The notes below the pieces were generated by a model. That model saw only the letters and a program-made list of their open reading frames with translations, was not told the DNA's origin and ran no database searches. Shown here in pieces: positions 1 to 61,844 of a stretch of 64,000 bases of DNA (the first letter of the stretch is position 1; each line of letters opens with the position of its first letter). The translations under genes and the position numbers were made by a program. This stretch comes from Escherichia phage vB_Eco_BCPEco_001: sequence record PV295200.1; one strand, given 5' to 3'.

Positions 1-1145
1 AAAAATATGTTCAGCAAAGGGCGATGTTTAATGCTACGTCTAAAATAATCGAAATTCAAACTAATGCTGAGCTTCCTCCAGAAAAACGAAATAAGAAAAT
101 GCCGGATGTTGGTGCTATTCCTGACATTATGCGTCAAGCATTATCAATTTCATTTGATAGCTACGTTGGTCATGATTGGATGGATGACTATGAAGCACGT
201 TGGCTATCTTATATGAATAAAGCTCGTAAGGTTCCATTTAAACTCAGAATTCTAAACAAAATTACTAAAGGCGGAGCTGAGACTGGAACACTGAACGTTT
301 TAATGGCTGGCGTTAACGTTGGTAAATCATTAGGACTTTGTTCATTAGCAGCAGATTATTTGCAGCTTGGTCATAACGTTCTTTATATCTCCATGGAAAT
401 GGCAGAAGAAGTCTGTGCTAAACGTATTGATGCTAACATGCTCGATGTTTCTCTTGACGATATTGATGATGGGCATATTTCTTACGCTGAGTATAAAGGA
501 AAAATGGAAAAATGGCGTGAGAAATCTACTCTCGGTCGTTTAATCGTTAAACAGTATCCTACTGGTGGAGCAGACGCTAACACATTCAGGTCTCTCTTGA
601 ATGAATTGAAGCTCAAGAAGAATTTTGTTCCAACAATCATTATTGTCGACTATCTAGGTATTTGTAAATCTTGCCGCATTAGAGTTTATTCAGAAAATAG
701 TTACACAACTGTTAAAGCCATTGCAGAGGAATTGCGTGCTCTGGCTGTTGAAACCGAAACTGTTCTTTGGACTGCAGCACAGGTTGGTAAACAAGCTTGG
801 GACTCTTCCGATGTTAACATGAGCGATATTGCAGAATCTGCTGGTCTTCCAGCAACAGCTGATTTTATGCTTGCGGTCATTGAAACCGAGGAGCTAGCAG
901 CTGCTGAACAACAACTTATTAAGCAAATCAAATCACGATATGGTGATAAGAATAAGTGGAATAAGTTTTTGATGGGTGTTCAAAAAGGAAATCAAAAATG
1001 GGTAGAAATTGAACAAGATTCTACTCCAACTGAAGTGAGTGAAGTAGCAGGTTCACAACAGATTCAGGCTGAGCAGAATCGCTATCAAAGAAATGAATCC
1101 ACTCGAGCTCAGTTAGATGCTTTGGCAAATGAATTAAAATTTTAG
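1..1145 (+). CDS. 41: Replicative DNA helicase gp41, 5'-truncated by window edge (frame starts at nt 3)
   Basis: DnaB-family C-terminal domain, Walker A AGVNVGKS; position upstream of dmd/61 as in T4. Confidence 0.9.
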   Translation, partial: KYVQQRAMFNATSKIIEIQTNAELPPEKRNKKMPDVGAIPDIMRQALSISFDSYVGHDWMDDYEARWLSYMNKARKVPFKLRILNKITKGGAETGTLNVLMAGVNVGKSLGLCSLAADYLQLGHNVLYISMEMAEEVCAKRIDANMLDVSLDDIDDGHISYAEYKGKMEKWREKSTLGRLIVKQYPTGGADANTFRSLLNELKLKKNFVPTIIIVDYLGICKSCRIRVYSENSYTTVKAIAEELRALAVETETVLWTAAQVGKQAWDSSDVNMSDIAESAGLPATADFMLAVIETEELAAAEQQLIKQIKSRYGDKNKWNKFLMGVQKGNQKWVEIEQDSTPTEVSEVAGSQQIQAEQNRYQRNESTRAQLDALANELKF

Positions 1146-1175
1146 TTTACAAGCTGACAAGACTATGGTATAGTA
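1145..1175 (+). promoter_or_regulatory. T4-type early promoter
   Basis: GTTTAC -35, about 17 bp, TATGGTATAGT -10; -10 lies in loop of inverted repeat CAAGACTA/TAGTCTTG. Confidence 0.6.
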
Positions 1176-1203
1176 GTCTTGTTGGTTAAATGAGGAGATT
1201 GTT

Positions 1204-1386
1204 ATGGAATTGGTAAAGGTAGTTTTTATGGGGTGGTTTAAGAATGAAAGCATGTTTACTAAAGAAACCACAATGATGAAAGATGACGTTCAATGGGCTA
1301 CTACTCAATATGCTGAAGTTAATAAAGCATTAGTTAAAGCTTTCATTGATGACAAGAAAGTATGTGAAGTAGATTGCCGAGGATAA
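1204..1386 (+). CDS. dmd: Dmd, antitoxin against host RnlA/LsoA
   Basis: 60 aa as in T4 Dmd, immediately after gene 41; RBS GAGGAG. Confidence 0.7.
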   Translation: MELVKVVFMGWFKNESMFTKETTMMKDDVQWATTQYAEVNKALVKAFIDDKKVCEVDCRG

Positions 1387-1387
1387 T

Positions 1388-1645
1388 ATGCATATTGTTT
1401 TATTTAAACCTACTCCGTATAACGTCAGGAAAAATACTCAATTCAAAGCACTTATTGCAGATACGTGGGAATTGGTGCTAGATATTCCAGCAGAAGAAAG
1501 TCCTCCATTTGGTCGAGTGGAATTTATTAAGTTTGCTGTACGTCCTACGAAGAGGCAGATTCGTCAGTGTAAAAGGTATTTTCGTAAAATCGTCAAGTTA
1601 GAGAAACAGTTTGTAACATGTGATTATGCAGAAGTTTTAAAATAG
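1388..1645 (+). CDS. 61.4: 61.4-position small protein (85 aa); T4 61.4 has been reported as TifA, an inhibitor of ToxN (name from memory)
   Basis: Position and size; TAATATG-type junction with dmd. Confidence 0.5.
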   Translation: MHIVLFKPTPYNVRKNTQFKALIADTWELVLDIPAEESPPFGRVEFIKFAVRPTKRQIRQCKRYFRKIVKLEKQFVTCDYAEVLK

Positions 1646-1647
1646 CT

Positions 1648-1680
1648 GTTTACTTTTGTTGGAAATTGAGATACTATATA
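1648..1680 (+). promoter_or_regulatory. T4-type early promoter upstream of sp
   Basis: GTTTAC ... GATACTATAT. Confidence 0.6.
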
Positions 1681-1705
1681 AACATAAACTACTGAGGAGA
1701 TTATC

Positions 1706-1999
1706 ATGAAAAAATTTATTTTTGCTACAATTTTTACTTTGTCTTCTTGTGCTGCTCAGCCTGCTATGGCAGGATATGATAAAGATTTATGTGAATGGTC
1801 TATGACCGCAGATCAGACTGAAGTTGAAACTCAAATTGAAGCAGATATTATGAATATCGTTGAGCGCGATCGCCCCGAAATGAAAGCTGAAGTGCAAAAA
1901 CAGCTTAAGTCTGGTGGTGTAATGCAGTATAATTATGTTCTGTATTGCGATAAAAACTTTAATAATAAAAATATCATCGCTGAAGTGGTAGGTGAGTAA
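1706..1999 (+). CDS. sp: Spackle (Sp), periplasmic superinfection-exclusion protein / lysozyme inhibitor
   Basis: 97 aa, N-terminal signal peptide MKKFIFATIFTLSSCAAQPAMA, position between dmd and 61. Confidence 0.7.
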   Translation: MKKFIFATIFTLSSCAAQPAMAGYDKDLCEWSMTADQTEVETQIEADIMNIVERDRPEMKAEVQKQLKSGGVMQYNYVLYCDKNFNNKNIIAEVVGE

Positions 2000-2011
2000 T
2001 TAGAGGTTAAT

Positions 2012-2368
2012 ATGTATAGTTCTGAATTTTCATATTTAAAAATTGAAAAAATTTCATACGATTTTATAGATGAAAAGGTTTATTACAGTTTCCATGAACC
2101 ACGTTTTAATAGTGAGGTTGGGTTTATTGTAGTAAAAGACAATTTTATTTTAAAAATATATTCAGCATTAAAGGATTTTCATTACGAAAATATTAACCTA
2201 AAATTTAATAAAGAAAATGTTCGTAATTGCGCGGTAACAATTACAGGAAATAAAGGTACATGTGTTATGCTATCTGATGAAATTAATGATTTGCTAAATG
2301 ATGCAGAAAATATTACTGCACCATCTATTGATGACCAAATTTTTAATGCTTTTATGAATAGAGGTTAA
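2012..2368 (+). CDS. 61.2: 61.2-position protein (118 aa); possibly the anti-DarT factor AdfA reported for T-even phages (name from memory)
   Basis: Position, RBS GAGG. Confidence 0.5.
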   Translation: MYSSEFSYLKIEKISYDFIDEKVYYSFHEPRFNSEVGFIVVKDNFILKIYSALKDFHYENINLKFNKENVRNCAVTITGNKGTCVMLSDEINDLLNDAENITAPSIDDQIFNAFMNRG

Positions 2369-2369
2369 T

Positions 2370-2534
2370 ATGAAAACATATAAAGAATTTATCAAAGAAG
2401 ATATGGTTGCTGGAGATTCAGGTGGTAATCCTGAAAATATCTCTACTGGAACAACATCAGGTGCTGTAGTAAATAAAGGTCCTGAACAGATTCCTAAAAA
2501 GAAAAAAGAGGAATCTAAAGAAAAAGAAGAGTAA
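2370..2534 (+). CDS. 61.1: 61.1-position small acidic/lysine-rich protein (54 aa); not in ORF track (<60 aa)
   Basis: ATG at 2370 after GAGG RBS, ends TAA 2532-2534, fills gap before gene 61. Confidence 0.45.
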   Translation: MKTYKEFIKEDMVAGDSGGNPENISTGTTSGAVVNKGPEQIPKKKKEESKEKEE

Positions 2535-2536
2535 AA

Positions 2537-3565
2537 ATGTCATCAATACCTTGGATTGATAATGAGTTTGCGTATCGTGCATTAGCTCATTTACCTAAAT
2601 TCACACAAGTAAATAATAGTTCAACTTTTAAATTGCGGTTTAGATGCCCTGTTTGTGGAGATTCAAAAACCGACCAGAATAAAGCTCGTGGATGGTATTA
2701 TGGTGATAATAATGAAGGAAATATTCATTGTTATAACTGTAACTATCATGCACCAATAGGAATATATTTAAAGGAGTTTGAACCTGATTTATATCGTGAG
2801 TATATCTTTGAAATAAGAAAAGAAAAAGGTAAAAGTCGTCCAGTAGAAAAACCTAAAGAACTTCCTAAACATCCTGAGAAGAAAATAATTAAATCTCTTC
2901 CGTCATGTGTTAGATTAGATAAACTGGCGGAAGACCATCCAATTATAAAATACGTAAAAGCTCGTTGTATTCCAAAGGATAAATGGAAATATCTTTGGTT
3001 TACAACTGAATGGCCTAAATTAGTTAATAGCATAGCACCGGGAACATACAAAAAGGAAATTTCTGAGCCTCGTCTTGTTATTCCAATTTATAATGCTAAT
3101 GGAAAAGCTGAGTCTTTTCAAGGACGTGCATTAAAGAAAGATGCTCCTCAAAAATATATCACCATTAAAGCTTATCCTGAGGCAACAAAAATATATGGAG
3201 TCGAACGAGTTAAAGATGGCGATGTATATGTTCTAGAAGGACCTATAGATTCACTTTTTATTGAAAATGGTATAGCTATTACGGGTGGTCAATTAGACCT
3301 AGAAATTGTTCCATTTAAAGATAGACGCGTGTGGGTTTTAGATAATGAACCTCGTCACCCTGACACTATCAAGCGAATGACTAAATTAGTTGATGCAGGA
3401 GAAAGGGTTATGTTTTGGGATAAATCTCCCTGGAAATCAAAAGATGTTAATGATATGATTAGAAAGGAAGGTGCAACCCCTGAACAAATTATGGAATATA
3501 TGAAAAATAATATTGCCCAGGGGTTAATGGCTAAAATGCGGTTATCTAAATATGCCAAGATTTAA
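2537..3565 (+). CDS. 61: DNA primase gp61
   Basis: 342 aa as T4 gp61; Zn-ribbon CPVCGDS...CYNC; TOPRIM-like core. Confidence 0.93.
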   Translation: MSSIPWIDNEFAYRALAHLPKFTQVNNSSTFKLRFRCPVCGDSKTDQNKARGWYYGDNNEGNIHCYNCNYHAPIGIYLKEFEPDLYREYIFEIRKEKGKSRPVEKPKELPKHPEKKIIKSLPSCVRLDKLAEDHPIIKYVKARCIPKDKWKYLWFTTEWPKLVNSIAPGTYKKEISEPRLVIPIYNANGKAESFQGRALKKDAPQKYITIKAYPEATKIYGVERVKDGDVYVLEGPIDSLFIENGIAITGGQLDLEIVPFKDRRVWVLDNEPRHPDTIKRMTKLVDAGERVMFWDKSPWKSKDVNDMIRKEGATPEQIMEYMKNNIAQGLMAKMRLSKYAKI

Positions 3566-3762
3566 ATTAACCCAACTAAAGCAAATGCTAGATCTACGAA
3601 TGTATCAAGAGTAACTACTGGAATATTAACACCATGCGCAATTGCAATTGGTGATAAAATAAAGTTCCAGAGTAAAATTCCTACCATAGCAGAAATAGTA
3701 AAAGCTATACGTTTCTTATTACCTTTGATGGCATTAACAAGTGCCATTAATTTTTGTGCCAT
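3562..3762 (-). CDS. Hypothetical small membrane protein (66 aa, about 2 TM helices), convergent to gene 61
   Basis: Minus-strand ORF with strong SD AAGGAGG 4 nt before ATG; stop overlaps gene 61 stop; extended -10-like TGTGATAAT upstream on minus strand. Confidence 0.4.
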   Translation of the reverse strand: MAQKLMALVNAIKGNKKRIAFTISAMVGILLWNFILSPIAIAHGVNIPVVTLDTFVDLAFALVGLI

Positions 3763-3805
3763 ATGTCCTCCTTTAAATTAATATTATCACAAATTTCATA
3801 AATTT

Positions 3806-3838
3806 GTTTACTTTCTCAGCTTGTTATGGTATTATAAA
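3806..3838 (+). promoter_or_regulatory. T4-type early promoter upstream of 186-aa ORF
   Basis: GTTTAC ... TGGTATTATAAAAT. Confidence 0.65.
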
Positions 3839-3860
3839 ATAAATTGCTGAGGATGATATA

Positions 3861-5199
<1,339 letters not shown>

Positions 5200-5200
<1 letters not shown>

Positions 5201-5226
5201 TTGCTTACATATTCAAATGATATAAT
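5200..5226 (+). promoter_or_regulatory. Candidate MotA-dependent middle promoter upstream of gene 56
   Basis: MotA-box-like TTGCTTA, about 13 bp, TATAAT. Confidence 0.4.
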
Positions 5227-5260
5227 TATTTAACTTATTAATGAATTGAAAGGAAAAATA

Positions 5261-5779
5261 ATGGCTCACTTTAATGAATGCGCTCATTTGATCGAAGGTG
5301 TTGATAAAGCAACTCGTGCATATACTGAGAATATTATGCACAATATTGACCCATTGCAGGTTATGCTTGATATGCAGCGGTCTTTACAGATTCGTTTGGC
5401 TAATGATAAGCCAGAAACAAATCGTCATCCTGATTCACTTGAAACCGCAGGAGAAGTTCTTGCTTGGCTGCGAAACCAAGACGATTATATCGCAGACGAA
5501 ACTCGCGAGCTATATACTTCTCTTGGTGGTATGAGTAATGGTGAAAAAGAAGCTTCTGCTGTATGGAAACCTTGGAAGAAACGTTATTCTGAAATGCAAT
5601 CCAAGAAAATTCAAGATTTATCTCCTGAAGATCAACTTGAAATTAAATTTGAACTAATTGACCAATTTCACTTTTTCATGAATAAATTTATTGCTCTTGG
5701 AATGTCAGCTGAAGAAATCTTTAAACTTTATTATCTGAAAAATGCTGAAAACTTCGCTCGTCAAGATCGAGGTTATTAA
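5261..5779 (+). CDS. 56: dCTPase/dUTPase gp56
   Basis: N-terminus MAHFNECAHLIEG as T4 gp56; RBS AAGGAAA; ORF-track start 5246 is a TTG. Confidence 0.9.
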   Translation: MAHFNECAHLIEGVDKATRAYTENIMHNIDPLQVMLDMQRSLQIRLANDKPETNRHPDSLETAGEVLAWLRNQDDYIADETRELYTSLGGMSNGEKEASAVWKPWKKRYSEMQSKKIQDLSPEDQLEIKFELIDQFHFFMNKFIALGMSAEEIFKLYYLKNAENFARQDRGY

Positions 5780-61190: not shown

Positions 61191-61393
61191 ATATAATTAA
61201 TAAGATTTTTGGAATTCAGTACATTAAGGTTACATATAAAGTAACAGATAAAAATCCGTATACCGATGAACACGAAGAACCACAAGTTAAGTCTATTATA
61301 TTAGAAAAAGGCAGTGACTGGCCAGTTGAATTTCGTCTTCCTTGCTATGGTCATTGGGCTGATGTTGAAATTATAAGCATTGAAAATGTCTGA
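61187..61393 (+). CDS. Hypothetical protein (68 aa)
   Basis: ORF, coupled. Confidence 0.45.
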   Translation: MNIINKIFGIQYIKVTYKVTDKNPYTDEHEEPQVKSIILEKGSDWPVEFRLPCYGHWADVEIISIENV

Positions 61394-61844
61394 GTTAGAG
61401 ATTAGAAGCAATTTTAGGTGGCCATCATGCGCATTAAGTAATTTCGCCCATTGGCCTTTCGTCATGGATGGTATTCAATTTGGAGGTCTCGAAGGATTCC
61501 TCCAAGGATGTAAGGTGAAAAATGTTGAACAACAACGTCGTATATTTGGGTTATCCGGGCTTGCCGCCCAACAAGCTGGAAGGTCTTATGCTAGAGCTCA
61601 GGACCGTGGGACCCTCTTCTGGCTTGGAGTTCCGTTTTCAAGATACTCCCCGGCGTGGAAAGAATTATACACAAATGCATATTTTGAAGCAGCGATCCAA
61701 AACAAGGGCTTTCGTGATGCATTACAAGCCTCGAAAGGAAAAGTTTTGAAGCATAGCATGGCTAGTGGTCTAACAAAAGATGATACAATACTAACCGAAG
61801 CTGAATTTATTGATGTGTTAAACCTATTAAGAGACTCTCTATGA
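61380..61844 (+). CDS. NADAR/YbiA-like protein candidate (154 aa), GC-rich
   Basis: Motif LSNFAHWPFVMDGIQFGGLEGFLQGCK resembling NADAR; local GC about 45-50 percent versus about 35 percent around it. Confidence 0.5.
   Translation: MKMSELEIRSNFRWPSCALSNFAHWPFVMDGIQFGGLEGFLQGCKVKNVEQQRRIFGLSGLAAQQAGRSYARAQDRGTLFWLGVPFSRYSPAWKELYTNAYFEAAIQNKGFRDALQASKGKVLKHSMASGLTKDDTILTEAEFIDVLNLLRDSL

Follow-up and report, generated by a model that had tools for sequence, protein, structure and literature searches.

The interval between the replicative helicase gene 41 and the primase gene 61 of Escherichia phage vB_Eco_BCPEco_001 (PV295200.1) raises the question of whether the small genes found there are what their positions suggest, and in particular whether the fourth is adfA (61.2) and whether the fifth, 61.1, is a counter-defense gene. 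An earlier note on this DNA had described positions 1204-2534 as a compact cluster of five counter-defense genes: dmd, 61.4, sp, 61.2, and 61.1. We examined a 64,000-nucleotide (nt) stretch of this Tequatrovirus genome (the window) by sequence-based analysis, with functions inferred from T4 homologues. ORF translation gave five open reading frames (ORFs) on the + strand between the 3' part of gene 41 and gene 61, all five at the places where the cluster had been described. The cluster itself is already known, and the idea of an "anti-TA island" (TA, toxin-antitoxin) was published in 2022 by Srikant et al., who renamed 61.4 tifA and identified 61.2 as adfA (PMC9391042). We are confident that the interval is a hyperplastic accessory-gene island between the core genes 41 and 61.1-61, in the configuration of phage T2. 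Within it, the fourth ORF is a paralogue of part of AdfA rather than adfA itself, and 61.1 belongs to the core genes and may have a role in the capsid.

The fourth ORF (2012-2368, + strand; hereafter the short gene) encodes a protein of 118 amino acids (aa). Pairwise alignment with the T4 locus, the check that had been proposed for four of the five genes, gave 96 to 99% identity for Dmd, gp61.4, Sp, and gp61.1, but only 37 of 92 identical residues (40%) for the product of the fourth ORF, and these only within residues 109-208 of the 208-aa T4 gp61.2. The last 14 residues of the two proteins are identical. T4 61.2 is indeed the anti-DarT factor AdfA, as had been suggested, but assignment of the fourth ORF to it did not hold. 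A case for this ORF as the phage's own 61.2/AdfA, acting as an anti-DarT factor, can be made from its position in the slot between sp and 61.1, from a score against the Pfam AdfA family (PF23813) above the gathering threshold (31.9 versus 27 bits), and from its homology to the half of AdfA that bears the DarT1-specificity residue. However, the Pfam match covers profile positions 115-211 of 211 only, and the full two-module AdfA architecture of about 208 to 216 aa is absent. The PHROGs assignments also differ. The 118-aa protein falls in phrog_4122 (118-aa profile, E = 2e-71; "RB32ORF033c," T2 type) and T4 gp61.2 in phrog_3781, and the two profiles give weak reciprocal matches only, between their C-terminal halves.

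The two genes can moreover stand side by side. Citrobacter phage PhiZZ6 has both in tandem, in the order sp, 208-aa adfA, 118-aa gene, 61.1, so that the 118-aa gene is separate from and downstream of adfA. A 601-bp query across the PhiZZ6 adfA/short-gene junction matched 469 records, 158 of which span the whole junction, while the rest match one half. The short protein was found by tblastn at at least 90% identity in about 293 records, including T2, RB32, RB14, and RB51. Taken together, the junction-query and tblastn counts describe a three-way polymorphism, with approximately 158 records carrying both genes, 135 carrying the short gene only (the window and T2), and 175 carrying adfA only (T4). 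T2, which has the same 118-aa gene, is described by the group behind AdfA as a phage that "naturally lacks an adfA homolog," adfA being present in only 13 of 17 Tevenvirinae, and the DarTG1 resistance of T-even phages depends on adfN (30.3), not on adfA (PMC11825919). At the column of the DarT1-neutralizing histidine (R164H), the 118-aa protein has an asparagine, N72, where AdfA has H or R. We conclude from these comparisons that the 118-aa gene is a single-module paralogue of the C-terminal half of AdfA and not the orthologue of T4 61.2; that it serves as the AdfA of this phage is improbable. Likeness to AdfA (PF23813, phrog_3781) is confined to the C-terminal beta5-alpha module and the 14-residue tail; the 118-aa protein has one such module and AdfA two, and the short gene is a separate gene that can coexist with adfA.

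The DNA alignment between the window and PhiZZ6 shows a clean deletion of adfA of about 615 bp. An 11-nt remnant of the adfA 3' end, TAGAGGTTAAT (2001-2011, + strand), equals the 11 nt, a stop codon and one further base included, that stand directly before the downstream ATG in the adfA-type genes of T4 and PhiZZ6, and it supplies the Shine-Dalgarno sequence of the 118-aa gene. The alignment thus indicates that the window lineage lost adfA by clean deletion and kept only the short gene. T4 appears to have taken the opposite course. At its 3' end, T4 adfA has the variants of the short gene (GATGACC and AGA), whereas PhiZZ6 adfA reads GACGATC and AAA, and we therefore infer that T4 lost the short gene by recombination across a shared tail of about 48 nt. 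In the window this 3' tail, SIDDQIFNAFMNRG plus the stop codon (2324-2368, + strand), consists of invariant alignment columns and, in the DNA comparison, is common to adfA, the short gene, and the gene for a 145-aa protein of Gaprivervirus VR25. AdfA, the 118-aa protein, and the 145-aa protein (1759-2196 of the VR25 locus extract), which ends in SVDDQIFNAFMKRD, are otherwise different; the C-terminal tail (S)(I/V)DDQIFNAFM(N/K)R(G/D) is common to all three. The DNA of this tail includes the Shine-Dalgarno sequence of the next gene. The shared 3' tail is thus likely to be a recombination joint and the ribosome-binding region for the following gene, and a functional role of the tail peptide itself is possible.

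The same interval is larger and reshuffled in the Gaprivervirus phages VR25 and DK-13, where it holds two TifA-like genes, the gene for the 145-aa protein, a 119-aa short-type gene, and a 63-aa gene. Because it is reshuffled in these phages yet always ends in 61.1-61, we consider the island, on this comparison of gene orders, a site where cassettes vary between fixed core genes. The TifA-like paralogues of VR25 are 98 and 73 aa long (1107-1403 and 2559-2780 of the VR25 locus extract), and both carry the RPTKRQIR motif.

The window locus has the same gene content and order as that of phage T2 (PV958097), including the 118-aa gene (97.5% identical), and differs from it in point differences only. 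Compared to the T4 "anti-TA island" (dmd-tifA-sp-adfA-61.1), the borders, the order, and the early promoter are the same, whereas T4 has adfA and the window instead has the 118-aa paralogue that T4 lacks. At 90% identity or more, the 1,391-bp island stretch is present in 509 phage records, almost all of them from Tequatrovirus, and in Salmonella phage vB_Sen_BCPSen_003 it is 100% identical. Each of the five ORFs has a family-level match in Pfam or PHROGs. Together with their presence in 509 records, these matches rule out chance ORFs and identify the five as real conserved coding sequence.

We additionally examined whether the short gene is a functional gene. A word-indexed search returned five clusters of relatives, all of 118 aa. 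Against 1.84 billion representatives, the short-gene profile matched three short-type clusters (118, 119, and 125 aa), residues 114-210 of AdfA, and one spurious repeat protein; with so few matches there is no wider family from which to learn about the protein. The locus is clearly recombinogenic, the last 14 codons are common to adfA and the 118-aa ORF, and T4 lacks this ORF, all of which would fit a functionless remnant in decay, produced when the adfA region recombined. However, the ORF is intact in the approximately 293 records noted above, and its length is held at 118 to 125 aa in homologues at 75% and about 45% identity. Among close relatives there are three to nine synonymous and one to three non-synonymous differences; synonymous changes exceed non-synonymous ones in five of six pairs and are about equal in the window/T2 pair (4 versus 3). 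AlphaFold2 predicted a compact beta5-alpha-beta-alpha-alpha fold with a confidence score (pLDDT) of 74 overall and 80 to 90 in the core. The pattern of substitutions indicates that the short gene is under purifying selection, and decay is very improbable.

The AlphaFold2 model of T4-type AdfA has two consecutive beta5-alpha modules (pLDDT 71), and by these models AdfA resembles a duplicated, tandem form of the module found once in the short protein. Comparison of the N-terminal with the C-terminal half of AdfA gave E = 0.003, weak sequence support for an internal repeat, and the proposed duplication therefore rests mainly on predicted secondary structure. A motif, (I/F)(F/V)VK(D/N)N, is present in both halves of T4 AdfA (5133-5759 of the T4 locus extract). 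The R164 column, placed in RB69-type AdfA by numbering from the MHKN start used in the authors' primers, lies in a helix of the C-terminal AdfA module, and one short-type cluster has H at the equivalent column.

By analogy, the short protein may be a small toxin-binding inhibitor of the AdfA type with another specificity, for another DarT variant or another toxin, although we put this forward with more doubt than conviction. Several points weigh against it. The short protein has N72 in place of the DarT1-neutralizing histidine, and Foldseek searches of the short-protein and AdfA models against the PDB gave nothing better than E = 0.1. We know of no binding partner for the short protein. Even in T4, full AdfA is dispensable (PMC11825919). 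A search of PDB sequences with the AdfA/short-gene alignment profile also gave nothing significant. Anti-DarTG1 protection in the window phage would be expected to come from adfN (30.3; 61386-61844, + strand), a full-length gene for a NADAR DNA ADP-ribosylglycohydrolase identical to T4 gp30.3 at 150 of 152 residues; experiments support adfN as the factor by which T-even phages counter DarTG1 (PMC11825919). As far as can be told, a single-module AdfA paralogue with a three-way polymorphism is a new lead, if a modest one.

The fifth gene, 61.1 (2370-2534, + strand), encodes 54 aa, of which 52 are identical to T4 gp61.1. It had been counted among the counter-defense genes, and here the claim found no support: the gene is found far beyond the phages that carry the island, and nothing points to counter-defense. 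A tblastn search found gp61.1 in 1,396 phage records across Straboviridae genera, including phages of Escherichia, Klebsiella, Acinetobacter, Aeromonas, Erwinia, and Cronobacter. In the loci compared, 61.1 is always directly upstream of the primase gene, and Aeromonas phage 31.2 has the order 41-61.1-61 with no island genes. By this distribution, 61.1 is a core gene and not an island gene. The protein has no Pfam match.

The N-terminal decapeptide of gp61.1, MKTYKEFIKE (codons 1-10, 2370-2399, + strand), resembles a capsid targeting sequence (CTS). It is identical at 8 of 10 positions to MKTYQEFIAE, the CTS of the T4 internal proteins IPII and IPIII, and at 9 of 10 to MKTYKEFITE of the IPII homologue of Klebsiella phage K65. 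In the CTS, residues 4 and 7 matter experimentally for targeting and residues 8 and 10 for cleavage, and the decapeptide alone packages foreign proteins into T4 heads (PMC9026906). All of these critical residues are kept in gp61.1, namely, Y4 and F7 for targeting and I8 and E10 for processing. No other ORF of the 64-kb window starts with such a sequence.

The segment that follows (codons 11-42, 2400-2495, + strand) is homologous by BLASTP to the N-terminus, or "N-fist," of the mature major capsid protein gp23, and a K/E-rich tail (codons 43-54, + strand) completes the translation. Residues 2-38 of gp61.1 matched residues 57-93 of T4 gp23 with 16 of 37 identities (E = 1e-8), and seven gp61.1 homologues from five genera matched T4 or Aeromonas gp23 with E values of 1e-6 to 1e-11; for gp23 residues 57-106 the values given are 1e-8 to 1e-11. 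An (L/I/V)xE motif is present in all seven homologues and aligns exactly with the gp23 maturation site LTE65|A66; over the 32 residues after the motif, 14 to 19 are identical to gp23 without gaps. By tblastn, gp61.1 also matched gene 23 of phage 133 (E = 3e-4, database-wide). In the comparison of gp61.1 with the gp23 of its own phage, the difference (19/32 versus 17/32 identities) was too small to call. The gp23-like residues correspond to the N-fist and the start of the N-arm of mature gp23 (gp23*), in which the N-fist contacts four neighboring subunits and helps to form the Soc site (PMC9958956).

Several GenBank records, among them PQ657821, MW021756, and OP197928, label a gp61.1 homologue "major capsid protein." These annotations led us to the CTS and gp23 comparisons, and the labels probably stem from the homology to the gp23 N-terminus.

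A rival account would make gp61.1 a cytoplasmic replication accessory peptide, or a translational-coupling leader for the primase, that inherited its likeness to the CTS and to gp23 without any capsid role. It would fit the invariable placement of 61.1 beside gene 61, in the same orientation and with a 2-nt spacer, and its membership in an early transcription unit, away from any late promoter. However, gp61.1 is conserved across genera at the protein level. In six pairs of Y4-type Tequatrovirus copies there were one to four synonymous and no non-synonymous changes, and in the four pairs with T4 there were one to four synonymous and two non-synonymous changes. Phages of Aeromonas and Acinetobacter retain the core, the (L/I/V)xE motif stands at the gp23-equivalent position in seven of seven homologues, and four of four experimentally critical CTS residues are retained. 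We regard the replication or leader account as unlikely, but as a serious alternative.

The capsid reading has points against it as well. In Acinetobacter and Cronobacter phages, the gp61.1-like segment is the C-terminus of a 158- to 163-aa protein that lacks the MKT start, and in the Aeromonas homologue the N-terminus diverges. A check of whether the gp61.1 N-terminus co-varies with internal-protein targeting sequences in Aeromonas phage 31.2 turned up no other MKTF.E-type ORF within the first 100 kb of that genome and was uninformative. Window positions 1101-2600 contain no late promoter (TATAAATA) and no MotA box, and the promoters are of the early type only, which bears on whether 61.1 is expressed when proheads form. 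We also found no published virion proteomics naming gp61.1.

Weighing these points, we consider it possible, at slightly short of an even chance, that gp61.1 is targeted to the capsid by its N-terminal decapeptide and cleaved by gp21 after E10. The decapeptide would act as a CTS of the internal-protein type, and the prohead protease gp21 would cut at the motif I-K-E. Cleavage would release a 44-residue peptide, the first 32 or so residues of which would mimic the N-fist and N-arm of mature gp23, and it would yield the semi-tryptic peptide DMVAGDSGGNPENISTGTTSGAVVNK with a non-tryptic N-terminus at D11. The freed peptide might fill or regulate N-fist binding sites, e.g., beside gp24 pentons or the portal; alternatively, it might be injected with the DNA. 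The wider proposal, that gp61.1 is a Straboviridae-wide capsid micro-protein releasing a free copy of the gp23 N-fist and, separately, that the 118-aa protein by itself inhibits some variant of DarT or a different toxin, is offered tentatively, as a possibility that we do not quite favor. We found no publication linking 61.1 to a CTS-like N-terminus or to gp23 N-fist homology, and as far as can be told these features are a new lead, again a modest one.

The homology to gp23 residues 57-106 and the position next to known counter-defense genes could also suggest a decoy for a host defense that senses the N-terminal region of gp23, e.g., a Lit/Gol-type or other abortive-infection system. The Gol region of gp23, which activates Lit, presumably begins near residue 93, either past the point where the gp61.1 similarity stops or within its last residues, and would speak for a decoy. 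However, 61.1 is a core gene that is also present in phages of hosts without such systems, and a decoy would leave the CTS-like propeptide unexplained. We know of no sensor for the gp23 segment that gp61.1 resembles. A decoy role is thus hard to credit.

If gp61.1 is a capsid micro-protein, it would differ from its nearest counterparts. It shares with T4 IPII and IPIII (and IPI) the CTS-like N-terminus and the I/L-x-E cleavage motif. In contrast to the internal proteins, gp61.1 is far smaller (44 residues if mature), not basic overall (7 K/R versus 9 D/E), and conserved rather than hypervariable; it is also encoded at the primase gene and not at the internal-protein locus. With the N-fist and N-arm of gp23* it shares the 14 to 19 of 32 identical residues found in its homologues, but it would be a free peptide and not part of an HK97-fold subunit, and gp61.1 and its relatives make up a clade of their own.

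The remaining genes of the island are close copies of T4 genes. The left border is the 3' part of gene 41 (24-1145, + strand), which includes the Pfam DnaB_C domain and is identical to T4 gp41 residues 103-475 at 372 of 373 positions, and the right border is gene 61 (2537-3565, + strand; 338 of 342 residues identical to T4 gp61). The spacers from dmd through gene 61 are 1, 60, 12, 1, and 2 nt; the genes had been described as overlapping or abutting, and they do abut, apart from the 60 nt before sp, but none overlap. The 60-nt spacer 5' of sp contains a promoter-like element.

The first gene, dmd (61.5; 1204-1386, + strand; 60 aa), was correctly named, 59 of its 60 residues being identical to T4 Dmd. 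The product matches Pfam PF17587 over its full length (residues 1-60 of 60, E = 1.8e-45) and the PDB entry 5hy3_B, "Antitoxin Dmd" (E = 1e-36). Dmd is also an antitoxin against LsoA. In T4, Dmd is an antitoxin against RnlA-type toxins (PMC9391042), and by near-identity with the T4 protein the window Dmd should bind and neutralize RnlA-type RNase toxins.

The second gene, tifA (61.4; 1388-1645, + strand; 85 aa), is identical to T4 gp61.4 at 84 of 85 residues and matches Pfam DUF7279 (PF23945) with E = 2e-20. Its earlier identification as the ToxN inhibitor TifA agrees with the literature (PMC9391042, PMC10853763). TifA binds ToxN and RNA and traps ToxN on RNA; K55, R56, and R59 are RNA-binding residues, F at position 41 is the weak T4 state, and the changes F41S and F41H raise ToxN inhibition (PMC10853763). 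The window translation has K55, R56, and R59 (...RPTKRQIRQ...), and the protein would, as in T4, bind ToxN and RNA and trap ToxN on cellular RNA. At position 41 it has F, the T4-type allele, and not the S or H of the strong inhibitors. With this weak allele the window TifA, like that of T4, should not overcome toxIN at single copy. A PDB search returned no solved structure of TifA.

The third gene, sp (61.3; 1706-1999, + strand; 97 aa), encodes Spackle, with 94 of 97 residues identical to T4 Sp. The protein matches Pfam T4_Spackle (PF25676; E = 1e-44) over its full length and the PDB entries 6x6o, 6xc0, and 7cn6. It has an N-terminal signal peptide, and the crystallized mature construct of 7cn6 aligns to residues 23-97, so that the mature domain begins at residue 23. 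Spackle, an inhibitor of the tail lysozyme gp5, acts in superinfection exclusion (PMC7677548). By homology, the window Spackle would be exported to the periplasm and block the gp5 lysozyme of superinfecting phages. The name given to this gene thus stands, but the counter-defense role does not, since Spackle is a superinfection-exclusion factor.

Two early-promoter-like sites lie in the region. P1 (1146-1174, + strand; TTTACA-17-TATAGT with TG before the -10 element), upstream of dmd-tifA, is the best sigma-70-like site in the region (10/12) and has one mismatch, in the -10 element, to the T4/PST PeSL promoter consensus TTTACW-N17-TAYWAT (PMC4122927). T4 transcribes dmd-61.4 from an early promoter located 5' of dmd (PMC9391042). 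P2 (1649-1677, + strand; TTTACT-17-TACTAT), which precedes sp, the short gene, 61.1, and 61, matches the same consensus exactly; it was read from the sequence, and a generic sigma-70 scan did not report it (8/12 matches). These sites suggest two transcription units, dmd-tifA and sp-short gene-61.1-61, each under an early promoter of its own. That P1 and P2 are consensus matches only weighs against this arrangement. A 15-bp stem-loop (1152-1187, + strand) overlaps P1, with a predicted RNA fold of -18.9 kcal/mol (z = -4.45, none of 200 shuffles as stable). This hairpin is likely a terminator for gene 41, and phage ASO78A has the same P1/stem-loop element, which its annotation lists as a promoter and a terminator. 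P1 and the hairpin form, at the edge of a hyperplastic region, the combination that defines PeSL cassettes (PMC2839356, PMC4122927), i.e., a T4/PST-type early promoter plus a strong stem-loop. In contrast to those cassettes, the window has its joints outside the PeSL, at stop/start junctions and within the 3' tails of coding sequences. An Rfam search of window positions 1-5500 gave no matches, and NCBIfam and PADLOC gave none for TifA, the 118-aa protein, gp61.1, or the 66-aa ORF described below.

Downstream of the island, a 66-aa hydrophobic ORF (phrog_2024; 3562-3762, - strand) is convergent with gene 61, with a 4-nt overlap at the 3' end. It is intact in T4 (95% identical, absent from the RefSeq annotation), T2, and PhiZZ6; in VR25 the identity is 51%. 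A hairpin resembling a terminator occupies positions 3725-3750. A 186-aa ORF (3861-4421, + strand) is directly upstream of dam, its stop codon overlapping the dam start (ATAATG). It gave weak but consistent matches to type II restriction endonucleases (PADLOC REase_II, E = 9e-5; Pfam DpnII, E = 0.0045), both in the catalytic-core region. The ORF is shared with T2, where it is 99% identical, and in T4 only the final 21 codons of it are left, in front of dam; among 5.8 billion proteins only 10 clusters were found, none of them named. From these matches, the ORF may encode a GATC-type nuclease partner of the "orphan" Dam methylase, which is identical to T4 Dam at 253 of 259 residues by pairwise alignment. 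Between gene 61 and gene 56 (3551-4341 of the PhiZZ6 locus extract), PhiZZ6 has neither the 186-aa ORF nor dam, and the dam cassette itself is therefore variable among close relatives.

The cluster as first flagged is textbook T4/T2 biology, to which nothing new is added. The fourth ORF carries a warning for annotation: position, size, and even Pfam suggest AdfA, yet the phage, like T2, has lost adfA. Counter-defense repertoires predicted from such calls would be wrong. Anti-DarTG1 activity in the window phage should be credited to adfN, and the F41 allele of TifA predicts sensitivity to toxIN. The three-way polymorphism of adfA only, short gene only, and both is a natural experiment for finding the target of the short protein. 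A capsid role of gp61.1, if true, would explain why pipelines mislabel its homologues as major capsid protein, and one of the most closely studied capsids would gain a small, conserved component that is new.

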